DNA from: Convolutriloba macropyga
Lineage: Eukaryota
DNA length: 64,000 nt
NCBI RefSeq assembly: GCF_964194025.1
Contig: NC_134473.1
Span: 72,230,001-72,294,000 of the forward strand
Reading direction: 5' to 3'
Shown piece by piece: positions 3,544-26,621 of the stretch. Each line of letters opens with the position of its first letter. Position 1 is the stretch's first letter. The notes under the pieces were generated by a model. That model was not told the DNA's origin, did no database searches, and worked only from the letters and a program-made list of their open reading frames with translations. Made by a program: the position numbers and the translations under genes.

Positions 3544-3957
3544 TCAAACCTCTCATGATTGGACTTCTAATAATTGAAGGTTTAAATACCCACCTTTAGT
3601 TACGTAACATAGTGATATATAATACTACCATCCTATGAAACCTCTGATAAGACTCGACTCAGATTCCTGTTTACAATTTTTGGCATATGAACAGAGACCC
3701 TGACGCTGTAAGTCTCGGCGCAGATTTTTCTTTATTGATCCAAATTGAATTGGGCTGGAATCTCAACCTGTGTTAAGCCTAAAACAGACAAAGTTAACTG
3801 AGAGATAGTTATCGTTTACAGCCAACTTAAGTCAAAGTTTCTTAAACTGAAAACAAGAAAAAAATAAAGAACAAAATTTTCAAGTCTTTAATTGCACCTG
3901 AAAGCATTTTATTTGAAAAGTAAAACAAATGTCAATGTCGAACATCGAATATTTTAG

Positions 3958-4227: not shown

Positions 4228-5414
4228 GTTAGTCAAACTCACGAGGTAAAAACTTGACTCATTGGTTGAGCTCAGAATCCATCCCAGGTTTAGGCATCAA
4301 CTTATGAAAAAACTCAAAAAATCTAGTGGAGAGGGCTCGCTTATTGACTAAAATTACACAGTCGAGCGTCCCGCTAAAGTCTTTTAAAGGGTCGAGTAAA
4401 AGTCTTTGCATGAGCTTTTGGGCCAAAGCATGCTATTTTCATGGATCGAGAAATACCATTTTAATTGTTGAACTAAGGACAATTCAACGGATGAGCAGGG
4501 TCTTTTCATGCGCAGAGCAAAAGACTTTTTTTTTGATAAGTCTTTCCTAGAAAAATTCGAAACTCTTTCAATATATGCTTCACATCAGTACATTAAGAAA
4601 AAGCAATTCATGTATCACGACTAACGAGCATTGTAACAGAGCACTCCAAATTGAAAGACAGTTGGAAAGTTACAAAATAAATTAAGATTTTTTGTGACTC
4701 TTTAGATAAAGCAGTTATCGCAGCTAGATTACATTGCCACATTACACCTGATTAAATGAATCTAGGCAGTTACATTACGATGCAGAGGTATACCCAAATC
4801 GTCACGGGCAGATATGCCCGATGCGTGTATCTCGTGTTCGTTTTTTACTATGTTAATACATTAAAAGGAAGGGAATATCGTATCCCGTGTTCGCAAAAGT
4901 GTCCTAACTTTAGCCGCGAAATAGAAGTACAAACTTAATAACCTATTTTTCGCGCGAGTTGTATCACGCATCTACTCCATTTATGTATCGATTTTTCGCA
5001 CGCAATGTAGCTGACCTTAATCACTCTAGCCATTATGAAAAAAACGGAATCTTTTAATTGTTTTCCCTTCAAAATTATGAGACGTCATTTTTTCAAACAA
5101 CCAGCTTTTTTGATTGACTACTTCTCTTCAGAAAAGCATTAGTTTAAAAGATCGTACTGAAGTACAGCGTGAGTTTAAATTAATTTTGTGTCAAGCTTAA
5201 GTGCATTATGGTTCTTAACTGCTTCATTAAAAAAATACAAGAGATTTTTGATTCATGATTTTTGATTCATCATCTTGGATTTAGATATTTTGCTCTGACA
5301 AACGCTTAATGAAAACTAGTCGACATTGTTTGGCATGTCTATAACAGCTCTCTCGTAACGGGTTCGCATCACTCCTCACACTTTGAGATCCAATACATTT
5401 CATCTGGCTTTTTC

Positions 5415-8400
5415 TATTTGGTTAGGCGAACTAGTTCGATCTGCGATCTTTTATGCACGTCAGTTCCTTGGCTAGGGTACCAAGCAAAATAAACCCTATC
5501 TAAACCAACGATGAACGAACAAGGGGTGCGTCCTGATTTTTTAGGGTCGTCGTGCAAGATAAACGCTTGAAAATCTGATTATGAAAACTCAAAAGTCTAA
5601 ACGCTAACTCTCGAAATTCTTGAATTATTAGCGGTGCTTACTTGAAATGACGTTCGTTTTAGTTTAAAAAATCGAGACAATCTATAACTAAAATTGAGAC
5701 AATTTTTGGAAGTGAAAACTGAAAAGCTTTTACACTATTCTTTTTTTAGTGGTAGATCGCGTGACTTTGTTTAGCGCAGAGGGTAAAACTGGTGGTGGTT
5801 TTTAGCGATTTAATTTGTTGACTCTATGTTCTGATCAGTAAAAGACTTCTGGTACAACAAATGTTTTCACGCTACTTTTCCTGGAAATGGTTGTTTTTTT
5901 TTTCAAAACAGTCGGGAGAAAAAACAATTCCATGTAAAGTATCTAATTTTTTATTTTTAAAATATGATCACTGGGTGGTATTGTGCTTGTTGTAAACTAT
6001 CAATATAGTGGAAACAAAAGGCATTTTTGTGTGGCGGCTGAAAGAAATTGCGTTCCCAATATCCACTAAGTCTCCCCTGAGTCTAGCTCTATTGAACATT
6101 AATCATAACGATTACCCTCAGTGGAACTATTGTTATTTAAATTGTTTAAAGCAATAACTTCCTTAATTTAAAAAGTTTTATCAGATTTAATGCTTTCAGT
6201 GTCTCTCTAAGTGGGAGAAAACGGGAACTTTGTTCATACCTCTTGCTCTAGGAGTTCTGGGTGGCTTCTCTTCACCTAAAAATTGTCTGAAAAGATTGTC
6301 CAAACTATCAGATATTCGTAGTTTCTATTCTGAGGGAATACTGGTGGCTTACGGAAATATTGTCTCAGTAGTGACCTATAATTGCTATCAGAGGATCAGC
6401 ATCTATGCTTTTGGTGAAGTCGAGTCTATCCCTTTTTGTTGAAGTCGAGATGTGTATCCATGAACTTGACTTATTGACAAGTAAACTCCCTTGTGATGAA
6501 AGCGCAATTGTTTCTGTTTACTCAATTGCTGCTTGATCAGAAAAAAATACTGAATTTATCATTATTTTCTCACAAAGCCGTTGAATTGACATTGAGGTGG
6601 ATGAACTCTGAATTGCTTCATTGTCGATTCTACAGTTTTGTTATTGCTGATGTCTTAAAAAATGAATTGAAACTTCCAACCAGTGTGCTAATGAAGACAG
6701 TAATGTGCATATAGGTGCCACCGCTCCAATGAGTCGCGAGTTGGCACCTATATACACATTACGTAATTTCCCTTTTGTTTTATCCAATATATTTCCCTTT
6801 ATAGTGAGACCGTGTAACTTGCACGTAAAACCAACTTGCGAAAATAACTTGAATAAAAAACCAGCTTAACTCTTTTATAAGTTTTAATTTGTTCGCTATT
6901 ATTTATTTAAAAAACTAATTAACTATAAAATCTAAACTCACCATTACAACCTTTAATACCTCTATCATCAAATGGATCAATAGCTATCTTGTATTGTTCT
7001 TTTGTTTCAAATGATGTTTCTTGCTATCAATAGTGTAATTAGTTACATATTTACTATTTGGTTAGGCGAACTAGTTCGATCTGCGATCTTTTATGCACAT
7101 CAGTTCCTTGGCTAGGGTACCAGGCAAAATAAACCCTATCTAAACCAACGGTGATTGACCAAGGGGTGCGTCCTGATATTTTAGGGTCGTCGTGCAAGAT
7201 GAACGCTTGAAGATCTGATTATGAAAACTCGAAAGTCTAAACGCTACCTCTCGAAATTCTGAATTATTAGCGGTGCTTACTTGAAATGACGTTCGTTTTA
7301 GTTGAAGAAATCGAGATAATCCATAACTAAAATTAAGACAATTTTTGGAAGTGAAAACTGAAAAGCTTTTACGCTTATACTTTTTTTAGTCGTAGATCGC
7401 GTGACTTTGTTTAGCGCAGAGGGTAAAACTGGTGGTGTTTTTTAGCGATTTATTTTGTTGACTCTATGTTCTGATCAGTAAAAGACTTCTGGTATAAAAA
7501 TGTTTTCACGCTACTTTTCCAGGAAATGGTTGTTTTTTTTTCAAAACACTCGGGAGAAAAATAAATTCCATGTAATATATCTAATTTTTTATTTTGAAAA
7601 TGTGATCACTGGGTGGCATTGTGCTTGTTGTAAACTATCAATATAGTGGAAACAAAAGGCATTTTTGTGTGCCGGCTGAATTGCGTTCCCAATTTCCAAT
7701 AATTCTCCCCTGAGTCTAGCTCTATTGAACATTAATCATAACGATTACCCTCAGTGGCATTATTGTTATTTAAATTGTTGACAGCAATGACTTCGTTATT
7801 TTAAAAAGTTTTATCAGATTTAATGCTTTCAAAGTCTTTCGAAGTGGAGAAAACGCGATCTTTGCTCATACCTCTTCCTCCAGCAGTTCTGGGTGGCTTC
7901 TCTTCACCTAAAAATTGTCTGAAAAGATTGTCCAAACTATCAGATATTCGTAGTTTCCATTCTTAGGTACTACTGGTGGCTTCAGGAAATATTGTCTCAG
8001 TAGTGACCTACAAATGCTATCAGAAGATCAGCTTCTATGCTTTTGGCGAAGTCGAGTCTATCCCTTTTTGTTGAAGTCGAGATGTGTATCCCTAAACTTG
8101 ACCTATTGACAAGTAAACTCCCTTGCGATGAAAGTGCAATTGTTTCTGCTTACTCCATTGCTGCTTGATCAGAAAGAAATGCTGACGTTATCATTATTCT
8201 CTCACAAAGCCGTTGAATTGCATTGAGGCGGTGAACTCTGAATTGCTTGTTTGTCGGTTCTACAGTTTTGTTATTGCTGATGTCTTAAAAAATGAATTAA
8301 AACTTCCAACCAGTTTGCTAATGAAGACAGTAATGTGCATATAGGTGCCTCTGCTCCATTGAGTCGCGAGTTGGCACCTATATACACATTACTTTATTTC

Positions 8401-8830
8401 CCTTTTGTTTTATCCACTATATTGCCCCTTCATATTCCCTCAAAATCTATCAATTCCTGTCTCATTTAGTGCAGTCTAATAGTATCGAGTTAAGCTGGTA
8501 ATTAACCGTTATCAGACGGATAGTTCGAATTCTATCCCAATTGTCTTCAGTGGACGTATCCCGGATACTAGTGTAACTAGTGAGACCGTGTAAGAAGCAC
8601 GTAAAACCAACTTGCGAAGATAACTTGAATAAAAAACCAGCTTAACTCTTTTATAAGTTTTAATTTGTTTGCTATTATTTATTTAAAAAACTAATTAACT
8701 ATAGAATCTAAACTCACCATTACAAACTTTATTACCTCTATCATCAAATGGATCAAAAGCTATCTTGTATTGTTCTTTTGTTTCTAATGATGTTTCTTAC
8801 TATTAATAGTGCAATTAGTTACATGTTTAC
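5415..8830. repeat. Tandem duplication of ~1.3 kb host intron DNA plus the element's left terminus and PolB 3' end (copy 1 ~5415-7058, copy 2 ~7053-8830)
   Basis: Collinear near-identical text from ctatttggttaggcgaactag (5415 and 7054) onward. Copy 1 lacks the ~150 bp segment 8430-8578. Confidence 0.92.
8329..8393. other. Terminal stem-loop of the element (20-21 bp arms, 23 nt loop); further copies at 6699-6762 and 26070-26133
   Basis: agtaatgtgcatataggtgcc-N23-ggcacctatatacacattact, one mismatch between arms. Confidence 0.85.
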
Positions 8831-11800
8831 TTTTTGCATCATAAATAGCATTTTTATAGTCTTCAATAGTAATTTGGTTTTTAATAGTAGCTTTGGTTAT
8901 GCCTTTTGACTTTTTCTCTCCTTCTCTTTTAACTATAGTATAACAATATGCTTTTGATTTAAGGAAACGGGCTTCTATAATAGTATCATTATGTAGCTCA
9001 TCCTCCATCTTGCCTAACTCATTATTATGTAATATATCTTTTATCTTATTCACTTCAGTTTCCATATCACTATCTAAAGGAGCATTTATGTTTAAAAATA
9101 CGCTATCAGTATCTGTATAATGATAACTACAATCTAATTTTATCAAAATTATCGTATATAGCTTTATACAAAAATAGTTTAACTTTCTCCAATATAACAA
9201 AACCAACACAATTAAACGTATCAAACTTATTTTAGTTCTTGTTTTATGTACAGCCACTAGTTCATAATCAAACTTCACAGCCTTTTTAAAACTAATATTT
9301 TCTACTAACTTAACTTATCTATCCAAATCATTAACTAACTCTACATCCTGTCTAATATATACATTTTCTATTGTTATTCTATAGAAGGCATTATTCATTA
9401 ACTTAAAGAATACATCACCAAAATTATCCCCCTAGCTTTATCTTCTTCCCATTTCTGAGTATTAAACTCAATATAAGCTTTAACCGCTCACTCTTACTAT
9501 ACTCTATCTTTTGCTTAATTGTAACATCTTCCAACCTTAAACTTTTACTTAAATACCATTCCACCATCTCTCCATCAATTACATAAGGCTTCTTATCTGT
9601 TGAATTCAACATCAACTTCTCATTTTGTTTAAATCCTTTCTTTTTATTTTCATTTTGATTGTCTGTAAACTGATCAATGTTAGCCTTTGTCTTATCTGGA
9701 AAGAATGGATAATTCTTTGTTTTCTGTTTCATCTCATCGGTATACTTTACATCAATGGTGTAGATATTAACCTTTAGTAGAGCTAGAGCTAGTATATACT
9801 ACACTGTTACAAACAATTATCTCAGCAGTAGGTAAAGCTTGCACCATAGCAGAGGAATATAATGAGCTGAAGTCTAAGTATTTTAAATAATTCTCTTTCC
9901 CAGTATACTCAGGATCTATTTCTTTATTTTTATATTTCACATGACAATCACCTAATACTGAAGCTAACCGACCTCTAATACCATGTTGTATTGTATCATA
10001 AATATTAACTGTATTTTCTTCATAATGTTTATGTCTAACATTAGTATATTTCAATCAACATAACCAAGTTAATCCAGGAGTAGAACATGTATAACAAGGA
10101 TCTATTTCATAATATTCTAAACACTCAGCTATTAAACTTTCAAATACATCTACCGATAATAAAACATCAGTTTTTAGATATAACATCATATAATTTTTTA
10201 TTGTTTCACATCCAGACTCTTTCCAACAATCTAACGCTTGCTTATACTCTTCATTAGTAACAACACTTTGTTTCAAAATAGAATAGAATACCTCCTTACG
10301 TGGTAATGATGATTCATTAAGTTTATCTGCACTAACTAACCATTCATATGGGAATATACCTTTACGTCTATCTAACTTAAATTTGTTTAATGTTACACAC
10401 TCTTTATGACTCAATGTTTTACTTATAGCATCAAAGCTAAGTTGATGGAAGATCCTAAACGCATCTTATGCTTTAGCATAACCCATATCAATACAAATGT
10501 AAATCTCATCAGTTTTTGTTAATACTTTAAGTCTAATCTTCTCTGCTAGTTTAGTTATAAATAGGTGATTATCATAATTAGTAGAATTAAATGCATATAT
10601 TGGTACAAAAGCGTTCTTATCTTGGAATTTATACTCATTGAGAGCATATCCTCTAAATTTACCATTTAGGTGATCATGATTTCTAGCAATGTCTTCACCC
10701 ATATACTCGTTACAATAATCACACTCAATACTAGGGTGAATAATACTATCTTCTTTTAAGGGAAAATTTATACTAAAAATCTCTTTAAACAATTTATTAT
10801 AATAACTCATACTACTTATAAACCAATCAACTATGCCATCTCCACAATAACTTTCATACTTATCCTCTAATATATCAGGATAATCAATTTTTATATATAA
10901 CTCACAAGCAATAGGAATATGTTTTCTGTTTTTATTATACATTCAAATTCATAATACGTAGCAAATGGTACGCCATTTTTAAAATGGAACTTATCAAACT
11001 TTAGATAATCATCACGATGGAATGTTCATCTTCCTGTATGGTTCTGTGTATCACACAATTCAAAATGTTTATTTTATGCTTGTTCAGTCAGAAATGATAC
11101 ACAACATTTTCGACATGGATAACATTTATGTTCAGATGAATTTCTTAATGAGAATGATACATCCTTACCTAGCAAATAATGATTATCCCAGTATAAAATA
11201 TTACATCCTTTTGGATCATTATGATTAATTAAAACAGGATTAATAGTTTTTTTTTATTTAGATTAATTACATTAAATAATACTTTATCTTTGTTGAACTC
11301 TTGTATTTTCTGTAAAGCTTTATATCCATAAGGAGGTGGAAGCCTCGGTAATTTTATCTCATTAATATACTCTGGTATTTTTATAATTTCTAACTCTATT
11401 GGGATGGTATTTAGCAGGATGTAGATAAGCAAGTAAACACCACAATAAACATTTATTATCATATTTATGTATATTAATTATATATTTAGACGTGAAGGGC
11501 AATTCATTAGTACAACCACCAGTAGGATAAAACCTGTGTTTATACATAGTTCTTTTAACAAATCTATTCATGCTCCAATCAGATTGTTTCATCTCATGTT
11601 CTTGTATTATAGTCTCATGTTCACAATTGAACATATCCAAGTCATAGGGAACATTATATTGTCTAGTCATTAGTCTAAATGTGAATTCATTTTCTTCTAA
11701 CTTATCATTTGAAGGTTTTGTATACCTTAATACATCAAAGGTGTTAAATTTTTTATGGGGATTCATGTTATACATTGTCTCGAATACTTTCAAGAATTTG

Positions 11801-12681
11801 GGATCTCCATAATTACTACATGTTATCATTATTTGATTATTTTTCATAACACAATCTAATCCTCACTCATTAACTTTCTCTCTCCACTTACCATCAACAA
11901 GTCTTGTCTGTCTAACATTTTCTTTATGATCATCTTAATCTTTGTGTTTATTTTTATTATTATATTTAGTTTTATATATATCGCAAGAACCTGTATTTGA
12001 TGTATGGGTCTTTGATAATGATTCTCTATCTTTAGATGAGTCTCTATCTTTAGATGATTCTCTATCCTTATCTTTTCTTTTAACGTTATCTGGATGCATC
12101 TTTGTTTTTAAATATTGATTCACATTATATTGACTTAGAGTAGTCTTACATGTTACACATTCAAACTTAATCCCATTCTTTATTATTTCTCCACTATTTA
12201 GTCTTACATTATTCCTATGTTTTAATGTTTCTATATGTTTATTATATTCAGTATTTTTATCTAGATACATATCACAACTATCAAAATACTTTATTCCCTA
12301 TAGTTCAGGATAATGTTTATTTTTTTGTTCTATATCTTCAATAGTTTCATTTCTATTATATAATCGCTCATTCGTTTTATGTTTAAATAATTGAATGTAT
12401 CTAGCGTAATTCTTTTGAGTTAACTCTTGATTACAATCTTCGCATCTAGTCTCATTAGTATTATTTTAGGTTTATTAAACATAGACAATATCATCAGATG
12501 AATCTGAATCTGAATCTTTAGATGATTCTCTATCTTTAGATGATTCTCTATCTTTGGATGATTCTCTATCGTTAGATGATTCTCGTTCTTTAGATGGATC
12601 CAAATCTGACTCTAAATCTATAGATGATTCTCTATCTTTAGATGATTCTCGATCTTGCTTCAGTCTTTCGCAATGACTCAT
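8695..12681 (-). pseudogene. polB: Protein-primed-type family B DNA polymerase (Polinton/Maverick-like), unit A, essentially full length (~1330 codons) but broken by stops and frameshifts
   Basis: In order: C2H2-like fingers, NKCLLWCLLAYLHP, CxxC...DH..GKFRG (endonuclease VII-like), YDNHLFI (ExoII), RKGIFPYEW, YLKTDVLL (ExoIII), YLDFSSLY (motif A), FFKLMNNAFY (B), YTDTDS (C), KSKAY, KSKGI. Confidence 0.93.
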
Positions 12682-12994
12682 GCATATCCTCTTCTCGTTG
12701 TTTTAATTTTGCAGTCTGTTTATCATACGACTCCTTTATTTGACAAACATCTGTTCGTTTGTTTTCTTCTTGTAGTTTGTTTTTCTTTAACAACATTTGG
12801 GTTACTATGCTAGTAGAACTAGATTGGGCTTGTCCACTTCCAAATTGAGCTCGCTCACTTTGACATTGGACTTGTCAACTTCCAGATTGGACTTCAATTC
12901 CAGTTTGAATGTTATCGTTGTAATCTTGTGCACTTATTTTTATACGACAACTTTTGAAATAACATTATTTATGTAATTTTTCACATTAAAAATT

Positions 12995-13276
12995 ATTAGT
13001 ATTAAGTGCGATAAATGTAAAGATAAGGCTTGGTGTTGGAGTTGTGATATATGTCAAAGTGAGCCTTTCATATGTTTTGTATGTAAGGAAACTAGAACAT
13101 ATAGAGAGAGGCATGATCATATGTATATACATTATAATGGTCCTAATCAAAATTTAGTATGTAGAAAGTGTCAAGTAAATAAACATATCCCTCACTATAG
13201 ATTTAAACATTTCACTTGTAGGCTATGCTTGTATCTCAATAGATATAGATTTGGTCGTACTAAAAAAGATTTATAG
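12995..13276 (+). pseudogene. Small Cys/His-rich protein, unit A (frame open, start codon lost)
   Basis: Translates ISIKCDKCKDKAWCWSCDIC..., homologous to ORF 21252-21536. Confidence 0.75.
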
Positions 13277-13294
13277 AACATGTAAATAAACATG

Positions 13295-14029
13295 GAGAGA
13301 ACACACCATCTGTATAGGTTAACTTAAATAGTTCACGACAATTCTTTGAAAGTGTACAAGAGAAGTTTATAAATGATTCTCATTTATATAGATTGAAATA
13401 TTATAAATATGGTATAATAAATTATGGTACTATTGGTGACTATTATATTGTATGAGATAAAGATAAAAATTGTGTATATGATTCTAGAAATGGCGATCTT
13501 GAATTTGAGAAGTATATTGATTATACAGAGTTTAAAGAAAAAGAATTTAATATATTAAGTAGTTATTTAATAGATAGAATGGTAGAACCAACACATATGA
13601 AACCAAATGATTTAATGTTCTACTTTGAAGAATATTTAAATTTTAAAGAAACAAACAAACCATTCAATTTTTATAAAACTTATACGAAAGTAAAAAGTAT
13701 ATGTAATAAGATCCATAGTGGATATATTGCTATATTTGGGATAATTACTATATTTGGATTTGCATATAGTTACAATCAAAAATATGGTGACAATAATAAA
13801 AATACTAATAATGATAAAAATTAATGGTATAGATATAAGGAACATAGATAAGGCCAAAATTAATTTCAGAATTGGTAAGAAGGTATCAAAAGGTTCTGGT
13901 GAAATTAATAATAACAATAAAACAATAGATATAAAACGTATTTTAGCCATTAGTCTTATATCTATTTATGCAAACCATAATCTTAATAAATCTACAATTA
14001 AAACTGACGTTAATATAAAGAGAATGTAA
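13295..14029 (+). pseudogene. ATPase gene 3' half, unit A; Walker A/B region deleted
   Basis: Sequence jumps from just after the Cys-rich ORF to the RENTP region; continues into MVEPTHMKPN...; frameshift near 13820. Confidence 0.8.
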
Positions 14030-14618
14030 TATTGAAATTGATGATAGGGGTGATCATTCAGAACATAAATAAATAACACATTGTAATAAGTTACATAATA
14101 TTTTAAATGTAAGATGTATGAAAAGTATGCAAAGACAATATAGTGGTCATCATTTTAGAGATGAATGCAAAGATAATCGTACAGGTTCTATAACATCAGC
14201 ACATAGTTATATTGATTATACTGATATTAATAATAGTGATAGTGATAGTGATTGTAATGATAATATTGATATCAATAAGGTTTTTAATGATATGAAAGAT
14301 AGTATTGTAGAGAATTTAGAATATTACATTGGAAATGAATTTAAAAAAGGTATAAATGAGATAGAAACAGAAATTACAAATGATTTATAAACAGGGGTAA
14401 TATTAAAAGGAAAAGTAAAGAAATTAAAACAACTAGAATTTGTTTTCTAAGCAAAATTGAAACGAATAGAGATTGTTTTTTATAAAACTGGTGGTTTATG
14501 TAAAGAATGTTGTTCAGAAAATGTTCGATGTCCAAAATGTAATATTATGTTAATTAGATCTTCTCTCAGTAAACATATAAAAAGGCCACATAATAGCCAA
14601 AATAGTAATTCTACTTAA
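14005..14618 (+). pseudogene. Zn-finger protein, unit A
   Basis: Homologous to 19569-20084. C-terminal GLCKECC..CPKC..RSSLSKH motifs in shifted frames. Confidence 0.75.
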
Positions 14619-14619
14619 A

Positions 14620-15055
14620 ATTTGGCATTAGATTAAAAACTACAAAAACTACACAGATTATATACAATCCGAGGATAATTCCGCATTATGCGCATAAATT
14701 TTCCGCATATTGCGCACTAAAACTACAAATCACATAGAATAACAGTAGATTACATAGGAAAGCATTAGATTACATAGAATAACATTAAATTACATTGAAT
14801 AACACGGATTAATATATAGCCCAAGATAATTCCGCACGCGTTCAGAATTATCTTGGGCTATATATTAATCCGTGGTATTCTATGTAATCTAATGTTATTC
14901 TATGTATTCTAATGTTATTCTATGTAACCTACTGTTATTCTATGTAATTTGTAATTTTAATGCGCAATATGCGGAAAATTTATGCGCATAATGCGGAATT
15001 ATCCTCGGACTTGTATATAAATTGTGTAATTTTTGTAATTTTTAATATAATGCCA
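14620..15055. repeat. Palindromic junction 1 (head-to-head join of units A and B), axis ~14839
   Basis: ...tatagcccaagataattc cgcacgcgttca gaattatcttgggctata...; arms carry 20-bp tandem repeats (agattacatagaataacatt-like). Confidence 0.93.
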
Positions 15056-15059
15056 AATT

Positions 15060-15662
15060 TTATCTAGAATTATTATTTTGGCTATTATGTGACATTTTGT
15101 ATGGTTACTAAGAGAAGATCTATTTAAGCTAAAATTACATGTTGGACATGGAACTATTCCTGAACAACGTTCCTTACATAAACCCCAGTTGTATAAAAAC
15201 AATCTCTAATCTTTTCAATTTTGCATAAACAGCAAGTTCTATTTGTTTTAGTTTCCTTACTTTCCTTCTTTATATTACCCCCTGTTTTTAAATCATTTAT
15301 AATTTCTGTTTCTATCTCATTTATAATTTCTGTTTTCATTCATTTATAATCTCTCTTTGTAAATTATCTTTCAATTCATTAAAAACCTTATTGATATCAA
15401 TATTATCATTACAATCCTTATCACTATCACTATTATTAATATCAGTATAATCAATATAACTATGTACTGATGTTATAGTACCTGTACGATTATCTTTGCA
15501 TTCATCTCTAAAATGATAACCACTATATTGTCTTTGCATACAATTCATACATCTTACAATTAAAATATTATGTAACTTATTACAATGTATTATTTATTTA
15601 TTTTCTGAATGATCACCCCTATCATCAATTTCAATATTAAATTCACTACATATTAACGTCAG
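15060..15662 (-). pseudogene. Zn-finger protein, unit B
   Basis: ORF fragments 15336-15548, 15154-15339, 14999-15202 (CCLCKIEK..., CKERC..CPTC..RSSLSNH). Confidence 0.75.
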
Positions 15663-16343
15663 TTTTAGATGTAGATTTAATAAGATTATGGTTTGCATAA
15701 ATAGATATAAGACTAATGGCTAAAATACGTTTTATATCGATTGTTTGATTGTTATTATTAAATTCACCAGAACCTTTTGTTACCTTCTTACCAATTCTGC
15801 ATTTAATCTTGGCCTTATCTATGTTCCTTATGTCTATACCATTAATTTTATCATTATTAGTATTGCTGTTATTGTCACCATGTTTTTGATAGTAACTATA
15901 TGCAAATCCAAATATAGTAATTTTACCAAATATAGCAATATATCCACTATGGATCACATTACATACACTTTTTACTTTCGTATAAGTTTTATAAAAATTG
16001 AATGGTTTGTTTGTTTCTTTAAAATTTAAATATTCTTCAAAGTAGAACATTAACTCTTTTGGTTTAATATGTGTTGGTTCTACCATTCTATCTATTAAAT
16101 AACTACTTAGTAAAATAAATTCTTTTTCTTTAAACTCTGTATAATCAATATACTTCTCAAATTCAAGATCGCCATTTCTAGAATCATATACAACCTTTTT
16201 ATCTTTATCTAAAACAATATAACAGTCACCAATAGTACTAAAATTTAATATACCATATTTATAATGTTTAAATCTATATAGATTAGAATCAATTTTAAAC
16301 TTCTCTTGTCATCTTTCAAAGAATTGTCGTGAACTATTTAAAG

Positions 16344-16398
<55 letters not shown>

Positions 16399-16860
16399 GC
16401 TTTTGTGTTCTCTCTTGCTTTAGTATTTAAATCTGTTGCAATATGACCCACACATATTATATTAATATTGTGTTGTCTACCTTTAGAGTATACTGAATCT
16501 AGAGCTGGTAATCTAATGTTTTCGCCCAGATCATCAAATATAATAGCGCTATTAGCAAAGTTATCTATATTATCTAAAAATTTTAAATCATCAATGCCGT
16601 ATGCGTTATAACCCTTCCACTCACTGGCATCAATACAGAATACCTTAACACTATCATACAAACCACAATAATCTTTTATAATTGTTGTTTTGCCTGAATT
16701 AGATGGACCAAAAAAAATAAAGTTATGTTTCTACATTTCAAGTGGTTCTTATAGAACATTCCTATATCCCACAAATCTCACCCAAAAAGCAGAATATTTT
16801 TCATAATCCCAATAAGCAATAATAATAATTTATAATAACATATTAAATAACGGGAAAACT
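15646..16860 (-). pseudogene. A32/FtsK-HerA-type ATPase with C-terminal hydrophobic segments, unit B
   Basis: GPSNSGKT at ~16690-16710, IIFDD, SKGRQHN. Disrupted by a (TA)n tract. Frame reads through ...GDCYIVLDKD...DRMVEPTH... into ORF 15646-16086. Confidence 0.85.
16345..16398. repeat. (TA)n microsatellite inside the unit B ATPase gene
   Basis: Direct read; gives the IYIYIY artefact in the ORF track. Confidence 0.97.
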
Positions 16861-16912
16861 AAATAAATTTTTATTAGGACTAAACTTCAATATTATATTT
16901 CTTTACATGTTC

Positions 16913-17195
16913 TATAAATCGTTTTTAGTACGACCAGGTCTATATCTATTGAGATACCAGCATAACCTACAAGTGAAATGTTTAAATCTATAGTGAGGGA
17001 TATGTTTATTTACTTGACACTTTCTACATACTAAATTTTGATTAGGACCATTATAATGTATATACATATGATCATGCCTCTCTCTATATGTTCTAGTTTC
17101 CTTACATACAAAACATATGAAAGGCTCACTTTGACATATATCACAACTCCAACACCAAGCCTTATCTTTACATTTATCGCACTTAATACTAATAA
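16913..17195 (-). pseudogene. Small Cys/His-rich protein, unit B
   Basis: Nearly identical inverted copy of 12995-13276. Confidence 0.75.
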
Positions 17196-17506
17196 TTTTT
17201 AATGTGAAAAATTACATAATTAATGTTATTTCAAAAGTTGTCGTATAAAAATAAGTGCACAAGATTACAACGATAACATTCAAACTGGAATTGAAGTCCA
17301 ATCTGGAAGTTGACAAGTCCAATGTCAAAGTGAGCGAGCTCAATTTGGAAGTGGACAAGCCCAATCTAGTTCTACTAGCATAGTAACCCAAATGTTGTTA
17401 AATAAAAACAAACTACAAGAAGAAAACAAACGAACAGATGTTTGTCAAATAAAGGAGTCGTATGATAAACAGACTGCAAAATTAAAACAACGAGAAGAGG
17501 ATATGC

Positions 17507-18996
17507 ATGAGTCATTGCGAAAGACTGAAGCAAGATCGAGAATCATCTAAAGATAGAGAATCATCTATAGATTTAGAGTCAGATTTGGATCCATCTAAAG
17601 AACGAGAATCATCTAACGATAGAGAATCATCCAAAGATAGAGAATCATCTAAAGATAGAGAATCATCTAAAGATTCAGATTCAGATTCATCTGATGATAT
17701 TGTCTATGTTTAATAAGCCTAAAATAATACTAATGAGACTAGATGCGAAGATTGTAATCAAGAGTTAACTCAAAAGAATTACGCTAGATACATTCAATTA
17801 TTTAAACATAAAACGAATGAGCGATTATATAATAGAAATGAAACTATTGAAGATATAGAACAAAAAAATAAACATTATCCTGAACTATAGGGAATAAAGT
17901 ATTTTGATAGTTGTGATATGTATCTAGATAAAAATACTGAATATAATAAACATATAGAAACATTAAAACATAGGAATAATTTAAGATTAAATAGTGGAGA
18001 AATAATAAAGAATGGGAGCAAGTTTGAATGTGTAACATGTGAGACTACTCTAAGTCAATATAATTTGAATCAATATTTAAAAACAAAGATGCATCCAGAT
18101 AACGTTAAAAGTAAAGATAAGGATAGAGAATCATCTAAAGAAAGAGAATCATCTAAAGATAGAGAATCATTATCAAAGACCCAAACATCAAGTACAGGTT
18201 CTTGCGATATATTTAATACTAAAAATAATAATAAAAATAAACACAATGATTCAGATGATCATAAAGAAAATGTTAAACAGAAAAAACTTGTTAATGGTAA
18301 GTGGAGAGAGAAAGTTAATGAGTTAGGATTAAATCATAATGTGAAGTATAATCAAATAATGATAGAAGTAATAATTATGAAGATCCCAAAATCTTGAAAG
18401 TATTAGAGACAATGTATAACATAAATCCCCATATAAAGTTTAAGAGCTTTGATGTAGTAAGGTATACAAAACCTACAGATGATAAGTTAGAAGAAAATGA
18501 ATTCACATTTAGACTAATGATTAGAAAATTTCATGGTCCCTATGACTTGGATATATTGAAAAGTGAACTCGAGACTGGAATGCAAGAACAAGCGTGAAAC
18601 AATCTCGTTGGAGCATGCAAAGATTTGTTAAAAGAACTATGTATATACAGAGGTTTTATCCTACTGGTGTTTGTACTACTGAGTTAGCATTCACGTCTAG
18701 ATATATTTTTAATACACATAATAATAAAAATAAATGTTTATTGTGGTGTTAACCTGCTTATCTACATCCTGCTAAAGCCCATCCCAAAAGAGTTAGAAAT
18801 TATAAAAATACCAGAGTATATTAATGAGATAATATTACCGAGGCTTCCACCTCCTTATGGATATAAAGCTTTACAGAAAATACAAGAGTTCAACAAATAT
18901 AAAGTTTTATTTAATGTGTTCAATCTAAATAAAAATAAAACTATTAATCCTGTATTAATCAATCATAATGATCCGGACAGATGTATTATATTATAC
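17507..18996 (+). pseudogene. polB: PolB N-terminal third, unit B, truncated and fused to a terminal-repeat arm
   Basis: ORF 17507-17713 is identical to 12475-12681. Homology to PolB stops after INHNDPDRCIILY at ~18996. Confidence 0.88.
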
Positions 18997-18999
18997 CTA

Positions 19000-19402
19000 T
19001 ATAGATTAAAAATTACAAAAAATATACAGATTATATACAAGTCCAAGGATAATTCCGCATTATGCGCATAAATTTTCCGCATATTGCGCATTAAAATTAC
19101 AAATTATATAAAATAACAGTAGATTACATAGAATAGCATTAGATTACATAGAATAACATTAGATTACATTATATAACACGGATTAATATATAGCCCAAGA
19201 TAATTCCGCACGCAGGCGGAATTATCTTGGGCTATATACTAATCCGTGGTATTCTATGCAATCTAATGCTATTCTATGTATTCTAATGTTATTCTATGTA
19301 ATTTGTAATTTTAATGCCCAATATGCGGAAAATTTATGCGCATAATGCGGAATTATCCTCGGACTATATATAATCTATGTAACTTTTGTAATTTATAATC
19401 TA
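19000..19402. repeat. Palindromic junction 2 (~200 bp arms), axis ~19212
   Basis: ...gcccaagataattccgc acgcag gcggaattatcttgggc...; same 20-bp subrepeats as junction 1. Confidence 0.93.
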
Positions 19403-19412
19403 ATGCCAAATT

Positions 19413-20048
19413 TTAACTAGAATTATTATACTGGCTATTATGTGGCCTTTTTATATGTTTACTAAGAGAAAATCTTTTTAAAATAATATTAAATGTTGGA
19501 CATGGAACTTTTTCTGGACAACAATTTTACATAAAACCCCAGTTGTATCAAAACAATCTCTAATCTTTTCAATTTTTGCATGAACAACAATTTCTATTAA
19601 CTTTGGTTTCCTTGTTTTCCTTCTTTATATTACCCCCTGTTTTTAAATCATTTATAAATTTTGTTTCTATCTCTTTTATATCTTCTTTTTGTATTTCATT
19701 TATAATCTCTATTCGTAAATCATTTCTAATGTAATACTTTAAATTCTCTACAATACTATCTTTTATATCATTAAAAACATTATTGATATCAATATTATCA
19801 TTACAAACACTATCACTATTATTAATATCAGTAAAATCAATACAACTATGTACTGATGTCATAGAACCTGTACGATAATATTTGCATTCATTTCTAAAAC
19901 TAGAACCACTATATTGTCTTTGCATACATTTCATACCTCTTAAAAATAAATTGTTATGTAACTTAATATAATGTATCATTAAATCAAGTTCTGGATAATC
20001 ACCACTATCAACAATTTCATTATAACATTCTCTACATATTAACGTCAT
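19413..20048 (-). pseudogene. Zn-finger protein, unit C (likely start MTLICREC)
   Basis: N-terminal CxxC...H...H, acidic/helical middle and C-terminal CxxC clusters after a frameshift at ~19575. Confidence 0.78.
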
Positions 20049-21202
20049 TTTTAGTTGTAGAATTATTAAGATTATGGGTTGCATAAATAGATATAAGACT
20101 AAAGTCTAATATACATATTATATCTAATGTTTCATTGTTATTATTAAATACACCATAAGCTATTGTTCCCTTCTTACCAATTCTTAGTTTAATCTTGGCC
20201 TTATCTATGTTCCCTATATCTATACCATTTATTTTATCATTATTAGTATTTTTATTATTGTCACCATTTTTGATAGTAACTATATGCAAATCCAAATATA
20301 GTAATTATCCCAAATATAGCAATATATCCACTATGGATCTTATTACATATACTTTTTACTTTCGTATAAGATTTATAAAAATTGAATGGTTTGTTTGTTT
20401 CTTTAACGTTTAAATATTCTTCAAAATAGAACACTAACTCATTTCGTTTAATATGTGTCTGTTCTGCCATTCCATCTTTTAAATAACTACTTAGTATATT
20501 AAGTTCTTTTTCTTTAAAATCTGTTTGATCAACATACCACTCAATATCAAGATCGCCATTTCTAGAAACATTTACAACATTTTTATCTTTATCTCATACA
20601 ATATAATAGTCACCAATAGTACTGTAATTTATTATACCATATTTATAATATTTAAATCTATATAGATTAGAATCAATTTTAAACTTCTCTTGTACTCTTT
20701 CAAAGATATGCCGTGAACTTTTTAATGTAACATATAAAGCTGGTGTGTTCTCTCTTGTTTTTGTATATAAATCTGTTACAATATGACCCACACATATTAT
20801 ATTCATATTGTGATGTCTACATTTAGAGTGTAATGAATCCATATCTGGTAATCTAATGTTTTCTCCTATATCATCAAAAATAATAAGACTATTAGCAAAG
20901 TTATCTATATTATCTAATAATTTTAAATCATCAATGCCGTATGCGTTATAACCCTTCCACTCACTGGCATCAATACAGAATACATTAACGCTGTCATAAA
21001 AACCACAATATTCTTTTATAAATAATGTTTTGCCTGAATTAGATGGCCCATAAATAATAAAGTTATGTTTCTTCATTTCAAGTGGTTCTTGTAGAATATT
21101 CCTATATCCCAAAAATCTCGTCCTAAAATCAGAATATTTATCATAATTCCAATAAGCAATTATAATAATTAATAATAACATATGAAATAATGGGAACACC
21201 AA
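20032..21202 (-). pseudogene. A32/FtsK-HerA-type (virus packaging-like) ATPase with hydrophobic N- and C-terminal segments, unit C (~390 codons reconstructed)
   Basis: Walker A IIYGPSNSGKT, Walker B LIIFDD, arginine-finger-like SKCRHHN, ICVGH. TGA at 20594, then homologous continuation in ORFs 20261-20470 and 20032-20295. Confidence 0.88.
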
Positions 21203-21251
21203 ATAAAATTTTATTAGGACTAAACTTCAATATTATATTTCTTTACATGTT

Positions 21252-21536
21252 CTATAAATCGTTTTTAGTACATCCAAATCTATATCTATTGTGATACAAG
21301 CATAACCTACAAGTGAAATGTTTAAATCCATAGTGAGGGATATGTTTTTTTACTTGACATTTTTTACATAGTAAATTTTGATTAGGATCATTAAAATGTA
21401 TATCCATGTGATCATGTCTCTCTCTATATGTTATAGTTTCCTTACATACAAAACATAAGAAAGGCTCAATTTGACACATATCACAACTCCAACACCAAGT
21501 CCTATCTTTACATTTATCGCTTTTAGTACTAATCAT
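21252..21536 (-). CDS. Small Cys/His-rich putative Zn-binding protein (94 aa), intact in unit C
   Basis: ATG-initiated ORF with repeated CxxC and His residues; frame conserved in all three units. Confidence 0.75.
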   Translation of the reverse strand: MISTKSDKCKDRTWCWSCDMCQIEPFLCFVCKETITYRERHDHMDIHFNDPNQNLLCKKCQVKKHIPHYGFKHFTCRLCLYHNRYRFGCTKNDL

Positions 21537-21539
21537 TTC

Positions 21540-21720
21540 TAATTATAAAAAATTACATAAATAATATTATCTCAAATTTTTTCGTATAAAAATAAGTGCA
21601 CGAGATTCCAACGATAACATTCAAACTGGAAATGAAGTCCAATCTGGAAGTTGACAAGTCCATTGTCAAAGTGAGCGAGCTCAATTTGGAAGTGGACAAG
21701 CCCAATCTAGTTCTACTAAC
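21540..21720. promoter_or_regulatory. Putative divergent promoter between the Cys/ATPase/ZnF block and PolB (copies at ~12810-12990 and ~17200-17380)
   Basis: Non-coding gap between divergent genes with gtataaaaa (~21584) and repeated caat(c/t)tggaagt(t/g)gacaag(t/c)cca motifs. Confidence 0.55.
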
Positions 21721-21911
21721 ATGGCTACCCAAAAGTTTTTAAATAAAAACTAACTACAAGAAGAAAACAAACAAATAGACGGAGAAAGACAAAAAGGAGG
21801 AAGCAGAAAAAGATTTAGAATCAATCAGAAGGTTTAATCAAATAAATGAAGAAATAAAGGAGTCGTATGATAAACAGACTGCAAAATTAAAACAACGAGA
21901 AGAGGATATGC

Positions 21912-24900
21912 ATGAGTCATTGCGAAAGACTGAAGCAAGATCGAGAATCATCTAAAGATAGAGAATCATCCATAGATTTAGATACAGATTCGGATCCACA
22001 TAAAGAACGAGAATCGTCTAAAGATAGAAAATCATCCAAAGATAGAGAATCATCGAAACATAGAAAATCATCTAAAGATTCAGATTCAGAATCATCTGAT
22101 GATATTGTCTATGCTAAAAAGCCTAACAAAAATACTAATAAGAATAGATGCGAAGATTGAAATCGAGAGTTAACTCAAAAGAATTATGCTAGATACATTC
22201 AATCACTTAAACATAAAACGAATGAGCGATTATATAACAGAAATGAAATTATTGAGAGTGCTTATAATGTTGGAGTAAAAGTTACTATTGAAGATATAGA
22301 ACAAAAAAAAGATAAACGGCAAAAGAAAAAGAGGGAATAAAATATTGTGATAGTTGTGATATGTATCTAGATTATAATACTGAACACTATAAACATATAG
22401 AAACATTAAACCATAGGAAAAATGCAAGACTAAATATTGGGGAATTAATAAAGAGTGGGAGTAAGTTTGAATGTGTAACAGGTAAGACTACTCTAAGTCA
22501 ATATAGTGTGGAGCAACGTTTAAAAACAAAGATGCATCTAGATAATTTTAAAGGTAAAGCTGAGGATAAAAAATCATCTAAAGATAGAGAACCATCTAAA
22601 GATAGAGAATCATTATCAAAGACCCAAACATCAAGTACAGGTTCTAGCGATATATGTCATACTAAATATAATAATAAAAATAAACACAATGATTCAGATG
22701 ATCATAAAGAAAATGTTAAACAAAAAATTTGTTGATGGTAAGTGGAGAGAGAAAGTTAATGAGTGAGGATTAGATTGTAATATGAAATATAATCAAATAA
22801 TGATAACATGTAGTAATTATGGAGATCCCAAATTCTTAAAAGTATTAGAGACAACGTAAAACATAAGTCCCCGTATAAAATTTAAAAGCTTTGAAGTAGT
22901 AAGGTATACAAAACCTACAGATGATAAGTTAGAAGAAAATGAATTATTATTTAGACTCAAGACTAGACAATATAATGGTCCCTATGACTTGGATATGTTG
23001 AAAAGTGAACTTGAGACTAGAATGCAAGAACAAGCGTGAAACAATCTCGTTTGAGCATGCAAAGATTTGTTAAGAGAACTATGTAAATACACAGGTTTTA
23101 TCCTACTGGTGGTTGTACTACTGAGTTACCATTCACGTCTAGATTTATTTTTAATATACATAATAATGAAAATAATTGTTTTTTGTGGTGTTTAATTGCT
23201 TATCTACATCCTGCTAAAGCCCATACCAAAAGAATTAGTAATTATAATTAACCAGAGTGTATTAATGAGATAAAATTACCAAGGCTTCCACCTCCTTATG
23301 GATATAAAGATTTACAGAAAATACAAGTGTTCAACTAATATAAAGTTTTATTCAATGTGTTTAATCTAAATAAAAATAAGACTATTAATCCTAATCCTGT
23401 ATTAATCAATCATAATGATCCAAAAATATGAAATATATTATACTCGATAATCATTATTTGCTATGTAATGATGTATCATTCTTATTAAGAAAATCATCTA
23501 AATAAAAATGTTATCCATGTCTAAAATGTTGTGTATCATTTCTAACTGAACATGCATTACGTAAACATTTAGAACTGTGTGATACACAGAACCTTATAGG
23601 AAGCAGAACATTTTATCGTGATGATTATCTAAAGTTTGATAAGTTCCACAATAAAAACAGAGTACCATTTGCTATGTATTTTGATTTTGAATGTCTAAAA
23701 AAAACAGAAAACACATTCCTACTGCTTGTGGGTTTTATATAAAAAGTGATTATCCTGATATATTAGATTAAAAGTATGAAAGTTATTGTGGAGATGGCAT
23801 AGTTGATTGGTTTATAAGTAGAATGAGTTATTATAATAATTTGTTTAAAGAGATTTTTAGCATAAATATTCCATTAAAAGAAGATCGTAGTACTCCACTT
23901 ACTATTGGGTGTTTTTATTGTAACGAGTATATGGGTGAAGACATTGTTAGAGATCATGTGAATTGTAAATTTAGAGGATATGCTAACAATAAGTGTAACC
24001 TCCAGGCTAAGAACAGTTTTGTACCAATATATACTTTTAATTCTACAAATTAAGATCATCACCTATTTAAAACTGAACTAGCAAAGAAGATTAGACTTAA
24101 AGTATTAACAAAAACTGATAAGAATTATATTTGTTTTGATATGGGTTATGCTAAAGCATTAGGTATGCTTAGGTTCTTCCATCCACTTAGCTTAGATGCT
24201 ATAAGTAAAACATTGAGTGATAAAGAGTGTGTAACGAAAAACAAATTTAAGTTAGATAGACGTAAAGGTATATTCCCATATGAATGATTTGATAGTATAG
24301 ACAAACCTAATGAAAAATCATTACCACCCAAGGAGGTTTTCTATTCTAAGTTGAAACAAAGTGGTATTACTAATGAAGAGTATAGGCAAGCGTTAGATTA
24401 TTGGAAAGAAGCTGGATGTGAAACAATAAAAGATTCTATGATGTTATATCTAAAAACTGATGTATTATTATCGGTAGATGTATTTGAAAGGTTAAGAGGT
24501 AAGTGTTTAGAATATTATGAAATAGATCCTTGTTATACATATTCTAATCCTGGATTAACTTGGTTACGTGGATTGAAATATACTAATGTTAGACTTAAAT
24601 ATTTTTAAAAAATACAGTTAATATTTATGATACAGTACAACCTGGTACTAGAGGTGGTTTAACTTCAGTGTTAGGCGATTGTCATGTGAAATGTTAAAAT
24701 AAAGAAGTAGATCCAGAGTATACTGGGAGATAGAATCATTTAAAACACTTAGAGTTCAACTCATTATATTCCTCTGTTATGGTTCAAGCTTTACCTACTG
24801 GTGACATAAGTGTTTGTAACGGTTTAGTATATACTGGCTCTAGCTCTACTAAATGTTATATCTACACCATTGATGTAAGGTATACCAATAAGATGAAACA

Positions 24901-25497
24901 AAAAACAAAGAAGTATCCATTCTTTCCACAAAAGACAAAGGCTAATATTGATCAGTCTACAGATTATCAAAATGAAAATAACAAGAAAGGATACAAACCA
25001 AGCGAGAAGTTGATATTGAAGTTAACAGATAAGAAGGATTATGTAATTGAAAGAGAGATGATGGATTGGTATTTTAATAAAGGTTTGAGGTTGGAAGATG
25101 TTACAAATAAGCAAGAGTTAGAGTATATTAAGAGTGAGTGGTTAAAGACTGATACTGAGTTTAATATTCAGAAAAGGAAAGAAGCTAAAGCTAAGGGTGA
25201 TAAATTTGGTGATTTATTCTTTAAGTTAATGAATAACGCCTACTATGGAAAAACAATAAAAATGTATATAATAGACAAGATAGAGTTATTTAATGATATA
25301 GGTAGATATATTAAATTAGTAGAAAGTATTAGTTTTAAATATGCTGTAGATTTTGATGATGAACTAGTGGCTGTACATAAAACAAGAGGTAATGTTAAGT
25401 TAGATAAGTTTAATTATATTGGTTTTTTTATATTAGAGAGAGCTATACTTTTTATGTATAAAATTCTATATACAATTACTTTCAGAAAAACTTAGAT
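21912..25497 (+). pseudogene. polB: Protein-primed-type PolB, unit C, truncated just before motif C
   Basis: Collinear with unit A PolB: CFYC..VRDH..FRGY, YLKTDVLLSVDVFE, FFKLMNNAYYGKT. Replaced after ~25497 by an inverted copy of the left end. Confidence 0.92.
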
Positions 25498-25499
25498 TA

Positions 25500-26108
25500 G
25501 TTTTAGTTATAACTTATCTCGAGTTCTTAAACTAAAACGAACGTCATTTCAAGTAAGCACCGCTAATAATTCAGAATTTCGAGAGGTAGCGTTTAGACTT
25601 ACGGTTTTCATAATCAGATTTTCAAGCGTTCATCTTGCACGACGACCCTAAAATATCAGGACGCACCCCTTGGTCAATCACCGTTGGTTTAGATAGGGTT
25701 TATTTTGCTTAATACCCTAGCCAAGGAACTGATGTGCATAAAAGATCGCAGATCGAACTAGTTCGCCTAACCAAATAGTAAATATGTAACTAATTACACT
25801 ATTGATAGCAAGAAACATCATTTGAAACAAAAGAACAATACAAGATAGCTATTGATCCATTTGATGATAGAGGTATTAAAGGTTGTAATGGTGAGTTTAG
25901 ATTTTATAGTTAATTAGTTTTTTAAATAAATAATAGCGAACAAATTAAAACTTATAAAAGAGTTAAGCTGGTTTTTTATTCAAGTTATTTTCGCAAGTTG
26001 GTTTTACGTGCAAGTTACACGGTCTCACTATAAAGGGAAATATATTGGATAAAACAAAAGGGAAATTACGTAATGTGTATATAGGTGCCAACTCGCGACT
26101 CATTGGAG
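25500..26108 (-). repeat. Inverted near-identical copy of ~6724-7333
   Basis: Contains the same PolB-3'/host duplication breakpoint (ccaaatagtaaatatgtaac) and the same ~150 bp deletion as at 6800. Confidence 0.92.
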
Positions 26109-26621
26109 TGCAGACACTTATATAAACATTACTGAAGATGTTATTTTTCAAAAGTTGACGACAATTATTGACAAAATAGTGTTATCAAAATAACGAAGCT
26201 TAAATGAAGCAGCAATTTTTGTCAATTTGAAATTAAATTATTTTAGACTTTCAAAAGTAAGAGGACAAAAACGAGGATAAAAAGTTACTATCACCGAAAG
26301 AATTTTGTCCAGAAAAATGAATCATAAAGATTTCCTGTAGGAAAAGGTCTTCTAAAATTCATTTCTTAGACGATTCCTTAAAAAAGACGATTCCTTAAAA
26401 TTAACCGTCAAAAACTATATACTTTTTAAGTTTCTTTAGCGCGTTTTAACCTGTTTTTACAACTATTTCGGTAATGTTTCACAAATTTTCAAAAAAAAGG
26501 TCACGCGTGAAAAGGTTCTTCATAAATTTTCGTTCCAGTTAGGATTTTACAAAAACGTATTTGAGATGCCACGATATTTTGTGCAGATTTTCAGCAACTT
26601 TTACACAGAAGTGTGTTGCAG

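Follow-up and report, generated by a model that had tools for sequence, protein, structure and literature searches.

A predicted membrane-anchored A32/FtsK-type ATPase retained by capsid-less, palindromic Polinton satellites

The ATPase described here is one gene of the A32/FtsK-HerA type, carried by an element that is a non-autonomous Polinton derivative, a satellite, and not an autonomous Polinton. The protein is predicted to have a single N-terminal membrane anchor, and it is the only ATPase that these capsid-less derivatives retain, under selection. We put the probability at roughly one in two that the protein serves to tether or pump free DNA of its own element at a membrane inside the cell, a reading that draws on sequence comparison and a structural model; the identity of the parts is highly probable, and for the step in which the pump would act the odds are close to even. 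Polintons have been described with one soluble packaging ATPase, lost together with the capsid genes, and some of those in this genome carry a second, anchored paralogue. The anchored form is also present in environmental contigs and is multicopy in one or more other assemblies. It would point to a step at a membrane in the life cycle of Polintons, either transport of free-phase DNA or assembly of a membrane-containing particle.

The element occupies 17.8 kb (8329–26133) of the window, the 64,000-nucleotide stretch that was analysed, where an AT-rich island at about 8.3–26.1 kb contains three ATPase units. It is a decayed, palindromic derivative of a Polinton with a single additional arm inside, bounded by the ends 5′-AGTAAT...ATTACT-3′ and by flanks that match at 5/6 bases, a decayed target-site duplication. 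At the left terminus, the terminal inverted repeat starts with a 65-bp hairpin (8329–8393, + strand) and contains a conserved, covarying stem-loop motif (8459–8594, +) that may be a structured RNA or ssDNA signal. The left arm holds an outward-pointing type A protein-primed DNA polymerase B (8784–12874, −), recognised by Pfam DNA_pol_B_2 and tblastn and broken by stops and frameshifts; the same Pfam family matches other copies. Zn5, a small Cys/His-rich zinc-finger-type ORF (12977–13276, +), lies upstream of ATPase unit A, and Zn3, a Cys-rich ORF (13962–14390, +), lies downstream of it. Palindrome centre 1 (14668–15009, axis near 14838) corresponds to the conserved central hairpin found in other copies. 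The extra arm is an inverted copy of the left arm, 95% identical, with Zn5 and a truncated polymerase at 16895–18996, and it leads into centre 2 (19002–19402, axis near 19212). Unit C then has its own Zn3 (19569–20105, −) and Zn5 (21252–21542, −), followed by a broken right-arm protein-primed polymerase B (21640–25495, +) and the right terminal inverted repeat and terminus (25497–26133, −). The left flank and the start of the terminal repeat are tandemly duplicated at 93% identity (5410–8430), which creates another left terminus at 6699. Tandem repeats of 18 bp that code for DRESSK-like units (12001–12676, 17486–17713 and 21891–22160) lie in the N-terminal region of the type A polymerase, and in other copies this polymerase also has an endonuclease-VII-like domain.

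The same palindromic layout recurs across the genome. A search of the 1.18-Gb assembly for the ATPase gave 151 matches from the best 150 of 2401 candidates, so that copy counts are lower bounds; 80 of the best 150 hits form converging ATPase pairs and none diverge. Twenty-four ATPase loci were fetched with up to ~10 kb per side, one of them single-sided and one ended by its contig. Eighteen have the mirror layout, in which polymerase-Zn5-ATPase-Zn3 is followed by a centre and its mirror image; the remaining six comprise two with inverted parts, two interrupted by a gap or the end of a contig, one monomer and one tandem array. Palindromes range from 10.8 to 15.5 kb, with the window element at 17.8 kb (median 13.9 kb, n = 15). 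The elements end in 5′-AGTAAT...ATTACT-3′ with a terminal hairpin, and in the 15 elements with both ends found the 6-bp target duplication is perfect in 11, matches at 5 of 6 bases in 2 (the window element being one) and is absent in 2. In one element (L090:6823 and L091:8314) the flanks are mutual reverse complements and not a target duplication.

Sequence at the centre is kept between distant copies. Polymerases are either of type A, pointing outward, or of type B, pointing inward, and both arms of an element carry the same type (19/19). Private variants are common to partner arms in 11 of 19 pairs, as compared with 5% of 2682 non-partner pairs, which indicates that the arms were copied from each other, in replication or by later conversion. 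This test took the place of a nearest-neighbour arm test, which was uninformative (19/38). GA/TC 'flip-flop' centres were rejected as evidence because they merely reflect the orientation of the palindrome. Two sites (L100-L101 at G000:C3:11.24 Mb, and L139) hold a non-palindromic satellite of ~7.5 kb with an ordinary right terminal repeat after Zn3, possibly an intermediate form. Another (L102-L104 at G000:C7:58.59 Mb) is a head-to-tail array of the Zn5-ATPase-Zn3 module with 5 ATPase copies.

Capsid, protease, soluble ATPase and integrase genes were found at none of the 24 loci and nowhere in the window by tblastn with helper queries, and the satellite arms leave no unassigned room for capsid, protease or soluble ATPase. 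The first-pass annotation had described an element with no capsid; this holds for the element, at the 24 loci and in the window, but not for the genome, which also contains capsid-coding Polintons.

Unit C (20032–21226, −), on which the finding rests, is a pseudogene of an A32/FtsK-HerA ATPase of ~390 aa that is predicted to be membrane-anchored. It has no start codon, a stop at 20594–20596 and a frameshift near 20265; Walker A, Walker B and the N-terminal hydrophobic run are present, and Pfam Pox_A32 matches above cut-off (E 6.9e-07). Unit A (13288–14029, +) is a 3′ half only, missing the first ~155 N-terminal amino acids, with a stop at 13453–13455 and a frameshift near 13820. Unit B (15646–16900, −) is open across the IV* site to the C-terminus and has stops and an (AT)n run upstream. 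All three are thus pseudogenes, none of them intact. The annotation had taken B to read through where A and C share an in-frame TGA, and B indeed has no stop at that position (20594–20596 in C, 13453–13455 in A).

Across the genome, the IV* site is sense in 73 of 80 distinct copies that cover it, a stop in 5 and gapped in 2. The five stops are TGA in window units A and C and TAA in 3 unrelated loci. Since TGA occurs among the 80 copies in A and C alone, the stop is local, and we rejected the idea that it is an inherited subfamily trait. Its presence in A and C, though B is the unit closer to A (93% overall, against 90%), may reflect local conversion or recurrent mutation. Uninterrupted copies continue for ~184 aa beyond the site, close to the ~190 aa originally proposed, for a full length of ~390 aa, and distant homologues at 30–39% identity retain the join. 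Intact homologues therefore keep the fusion, and two genes split at IV* were rejected, with 73/80 copies open and the join retained in distant relatives. A natural copy with an uninterrupted frame (L002) served as the query protein.

In unit C, the ATPase core (20594–21070, −) includes Walker A (21026–21049), Walker B, an arginine-finger motif and a His at the usual Gln-sensor position, and is followed after the IV* site by a conserved C-terminal helical domain (20400–20593, −) under purifying selection. Membrane segments were called by prediction, from hydropathy (19-residue Kyte-Doolittle mean) and AlphaFold helices. The N-terminal hydrophobic helix (21149–21208, −) is a predicted single-pass anchor conserved throughout the family: its hydropathy is 2.42–3.26 in 25/25 copies, and 2.3–3.7 in 17/19 distant homologues, a set that leaves out one protein without Walker A. 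The two misses look N-truncated because a cluster mate has the N-terminal stretch. In contrast, the first (20276–20329, −) and second (20080–20121, −) C-terminal hydrophobic stretches are marginal and lineage-specific, with best means of 0.78–1.56 (n = 26) and 1.19–1.79 (n = 22) in the copies, and they are absent from all 16 distant homologues that could be measured (best 0.98 or less). A multi-copy anchored-ATPase lineage on long ENA contigs (P0198, P0286 and P0298-P0312) likewise has the N-terminal anchor and no C-terminal hydrophobic stretch; close counterparts of P0198 and P0300 were not found in this genome.

Selection was assessed by comparing variants private to one element with those shared by four or more, in 52 elements. 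Within the ATPase core, N/S falls from 4.14 for private to 0.81 for shared variants (p = 4.8e-06), and the helical domain also shows purifying selection (p = 0.001). Selection was not detectable in the two C-terminal hydrophobic regions (p = 0.58 and 0.39) or in amino acids 1–45 (p = 1, with few variants). By the same comparison the polymerase (p = 3e-24, in a set of 19, one of them a helper), Zn5 (p = 0.0015) and Zn3 (p = 0.036) are under selection. Pairwise dN/dS values of 0.60–0.75 were dropped in favour of this test, as they hang on one divergent copy. Purifying selection in a capsid-less family means that the ATPase was functional there, and its persistence while the capsid-less element spread argues that it worked with no capsid gene in cis.

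Strong N-terminal hydropathy, set against marginal C-terminal values with no selection on the C-terminal stretches, places the anchor at the N-terminus and makes it single by prediction. Membrane anchoring of the ATPase, as first suggested, is thus upheld at the level of prediction, by way of the N-terminal run. That run in unit C is real, and begins near 21208, just beyond the end that had been given for it. The C-terminal stretches that had been proposed as anchors would be weak ones: their hydropathy is marginal, distant homologues lack them, and no selection on them was detected. The stretch ILAISLISIYA occurs as described in units A and B, and unit C reads ILDFSLISIYA.

The AlphaFold model used was built on a 75-sequence alignment (an earlier run with pLDDT 53 was set aside) and has a mean pLDDT of 79, with the core above 90. 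A helix at residues 4–21 precedes a confident core and helical domain extending to ~275, then a long helix to 315 and a low-confidence segment. The top fold match of the core is the STIV2 packaging ATPase B204 (Z 15.9, rmsd 2.7 over 163 residues), followed by VirB4 (Z 15.0), TcpA (14.0), FtsK (12.0), Zot (11.6) and TrwB (10.8). B204 also ranks first with Foldseek on the PDB, and A32-like proteins dominate the matches in a viral structure library. A PDB sequence search with the ATPase gave no match below E 0.04, and ESM Atlas look-alikes, Zot among them, all score under 0.9 and serve as leads only. A full HMMER search returned 207 relatives, the full-length ones at 27–39% identity.

The family has Walker A, Walker B, an arginine finger and the FtsK-HerA fold, and several copies match Pfam Pox_A32 above cut-off. 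Nine positions are invariant across 19 aligned members, and the His at the sensor position (H142) is invariant in 19/19; A32/FtsK proteins usually carry a Gln sensor after the arginine-finger strand, and the soluble ATPase of the helper Polintons has Gln. The protein thus shares its fold, Walker motifs, arginine finger and Pox_A32 match with the A32/B204/P9 ATPases (STIV2 B204, poxvirus A32, virophage), but differs from them in its predicted N-terminal membrane helix, its C-terminal helical domain and its sensor-position His, and in being retained where there is no capsid. An N-terminal membrane anchor ahead of an FtsK-HerA motor is also the layout of TcpA, TrwB and FtsK/SpoIIIE, and Streptomyces TraB is a membrane-anchored FtsK-HerA translocase too. 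Unlike these, the protein has a single predicted helix and belongs to the viral A32 lineage, in a eukaryotic host and an element without conjugation genes. By analogy, the ATPase may work like the anchored translocases without being a member of their group.

A metagenome scan found the gene on three short environmental contigs (1.3–3.3 kb), each time beside a zinc-finger-type ORF; no capsid gene was seen next to it within these 1.3–3.3 kb. IMG/VR scans yielded no family member and one distant virophage-like ATPase. A function other than genome movement, such as replication-membrane remodelling, countering of host defence or interference with the helper, is a further alternative. The ATPase accompanies zinc-finger ORFs in every context seen. 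The invariant sensor-position His and the conserved extra helical domain, which set off a distinct subfamily, fit such a role, and FtsK-HerA folds include the protein translocases EccC and VirB4; however, the closest folds are viral DNA-packaging motors, and we consider this alternative decidedly unlikely.

Capsid-coding Polintons are numerous in the genome (126 scored, the best of 1792 candidates), and some share their ends with the satellites and encode the functions that these lack. In each of the seven capsid loci fetched, the anchored ATPase is present and followed by a zinc-finger ORF, and in 6 of the 7 a soluble ATPase adjoins the capsid genes; an integrase is likewise found in 6/7. What we take to be the protease and minor capsid genes of these helpers were labelled from familiar motifs and position and not by Pfam. 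At three loci (L070:4236-5735, L063:8570-9802 and L074:1628-2857) the soluble ATPase lies in one frame behind a protease-like domain and a DN-rich linker, and this domain has no Pfam match. One capsid-coding Polinton (G000:C8:12098898-12115009, L057-L059) has a perfect target duplication and both ATPases, with no integrase match; its polymerase and ends are common to the type A satellites.

The satellite ATPase aligns with the helpers' anchored paralogue from the anchor through the helical domain, at 26% identity over 295 aa (E 6e-26), as compared with E 6e-07 for the soluble ATPase. A tree of 28 cores places the soluble ATPases on a long branch that separates them from the anchored forms of satellites, helpers and environmental contigs; it leaves one virophage-like outgroup unplaced and does not resolve the satellite form as sister to that of the helpers. 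By these sequence comparisons, the anchored ATPase and the soluble one in the capsid block are distinct paralogues. With only 26% identity and no sister relationship to the helper paralogue, a direct capsid-coding ancestor of the satellite ATPase was not found in this genome. Which helper ATPase packages is a matter we infer from gene position; since Pox_A32 matches the anchored helper ATPase above cut-off and not the soluble one, the roles could be reversed or shared.

Leaving aside the block bounded by integrase and soluble ATPase, satellite arm and helper are collinear, and the soluble ATPase was lost together with the capsid block. Type A arms are 91.6% identical to a capsid-coding element over 4.5 kb, with an end that is 96.8% identical over 652 nt; in type B the terminal repeat is 77% identical over 210 nt and the polymerase region is 92% identical to another capsid-coding Polinton. 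Collinearity and these identities indicate that the satellite is a mosaic of a helper left end and the ATPase-Zn3 module of another lineage.

The presence of a homologous anchored ATPase in capsid-coding Polintons implies that the anchor predates capsid loss and that the protein is not a converted packaging motor. The earlier proposal that a packaging ATPase turned to extrusion when the capsid was lost is not supported, given that the capsid loci already carry the anchored paralogue in 7/7 cases. In its fuller form, that proposal has the ATPase gain several membrane helices after capsid loss and act as a Zot/pI-like channel exporting DNA into vesicles. It would suit the one fused ORF, the lack of a capsid in cis, the purifying selection, the moderately hydrophobic C-terminal stretch of the helpers' anchored paralogue (1.48–1.75) and the appearance of Zot among fold and language-model look-alikes. 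Beyond the 7/7 result, the C-terminal stretches are marginal in the copies, absent in 16/16 distant homologues and without a sign of selection (p = 0.58 and 0.39), and the model gives low confidence to the segment that separates them. At E 0.1, Pfam Zot matches neither the window nor the reference copy, and a single distant homologue scores against it, below cut-off. The conserved membrane helix of pI/Zot is C-terminal to the ATPase domain, whereas the anchor here comes before it. Inovirus pI/Zot belongs to the same superfamily (Z 11.6), but the element has a dsDNA Polinton context, and its ATPase is not a Zot/pI member. A Zot/pI-like layout is not supported, and export through such a channel is very improbable.

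Like Polintons/Mavericks (Polintoviricetes, adintoviruses), the element has a protein-primed PolB, terminal inverted repeats, 5′-AG...CT-3′ ends, a 6-bp target duplication and an A32/FtsK-type ATPase, and its gene order is collinear with that of capsid-coding Polintons of the same genome. It differs in lacking integrase, capsid proteins, protease and soluble ATPase, in being as a whole one palindrome with a conserved hairpin centre, and in having as its ATPase an anchored second paralogue. Nine Polintons without a capsid gene are reported, in the part of PMC4028283 considered, to have lacked protease and ATPase as well; retention of the anchored ATPase here sets it apart from the capsid module. 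Nematode Polintons have exchanged two polymerase classes (10.1101/2023.08.22.554363), as the polymerase has been swapped here, and the portion of that paper covered has no match for transmembrane or palindrome. Membrane-active accessory proteins, one of them an FtsK, appear in the passages from PMC8502044. Neither a second anchored ATPase nor whole-length palindromes occur in the passages drawn from PMC4028283, 10.1101/2023.08.22.554363, PMC8097293 and PMC6431247, nor in those from 10.64898/2026.06.19.733378, PMC8502044 and PMC11131425. Among the titles and starts of abstracts listed, none is on a second anchored ATPase or on palindromic Polintons. The novelty of an anchored second ATPase together with palindromic satellites is provisional.

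In the mechanism we propose, the element would leave the chromosome and, in the form of a ~7-kb duplex, fold or replicate via its central hairpin, relying on the protein-primed polymerase that it encodes; a fold-back replication model exists for Polintons. The integrase of helper Polintons would re-insert it, the ends being common to both, and helper mobilisation is suggested because target duplications are present although integrase is not. In the free phase its anchored ATPase would serve as a ring translocase whose motor faces the cytoplasm or the nucleoplasm. The satellite would borrow integrase, and perhaps capsids, from its helpers.

Borrowing of capsids is central to the main rival account, in which the anchored ATPase belongs to virion assembly, as a membrane-bound partner or a specificity subunit for the packaging of membrane-containing particles; the satellite's version would steer its DNA into helper capsids, and palindrome doubling brings a 7-kb replicon to capsid size. 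The median palindrome of 13.9 kb (n = 15) approaches the 15.5 and 16.1 kb of the two helpers measured, a half-size monomer (~7.5 kb) turned up at just 2 loci, against converging ATPase pairs in 18 of the 24 fully viewed loci, ends are common to satellites and helpers, and the best fold match is a packaging ATPase from a membrane-containing virus. Satellites such as PICI/SaPI keep packaging-redirect genes, and in copy-back defective genomes and self-complementary AAV a half-size genome is doubled into a palindrome of about helper size with the helper ends kept. The element departs from those in that selection has maintained a polymerase and accessory genes of its own, that its insertions have target duplications, and that an animal genome passes it on as a family. 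A palindrome could be favoured by hairpin self-priming alone, and in the short environmental contigs (1.3–3.3 kb) the gene is surrounded by zinc-finger ORFs and no capsid gene is seen; on balance this account is possible but doubtful.

The near-helper size of the palindromes counts against membrane tethering or pumping of the element's free DNA, the reading we prefer, and in favour of the helper-capsid account; the doubling points to use of helper capsids at least as much as to extrusion into vesicles. A bolder version, in which the satellite kit of polymerase, two zinc-finger proteins and an anchored FtsK-type pump moves naked DNA across a membrane with no virion, between nucleus and cytoplasm or from cell to cell, would if true be a eukaryotic counterpart of single-protein plasmid transfer, and we think it unlikely. 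The palindromic satellites offer a natural test of whether Polintons replicate via fold-back intermediates and, because they have doubled to about helper size, of Polinton particle formation.

A stem-loop of ~135 nt occurs in two diverged versions in the terminal repeats of satellites and helpers, at 8459–8594 in the window, at L032:3537-3674 and 3792-3929, and also in L057, L060, L068 and L070. It has changes on both sides in 4 of 16 predicted pairs, and matches Rfam RAGATH-11 weakly (E 0.0014, 31 bits, far under the gathering score of 79). Elsewhere in the window, a satellite DNA array with a ~603-bp unit in over 20 copies fills 49750–64000, with shorter relatives at 43758 and 44747.
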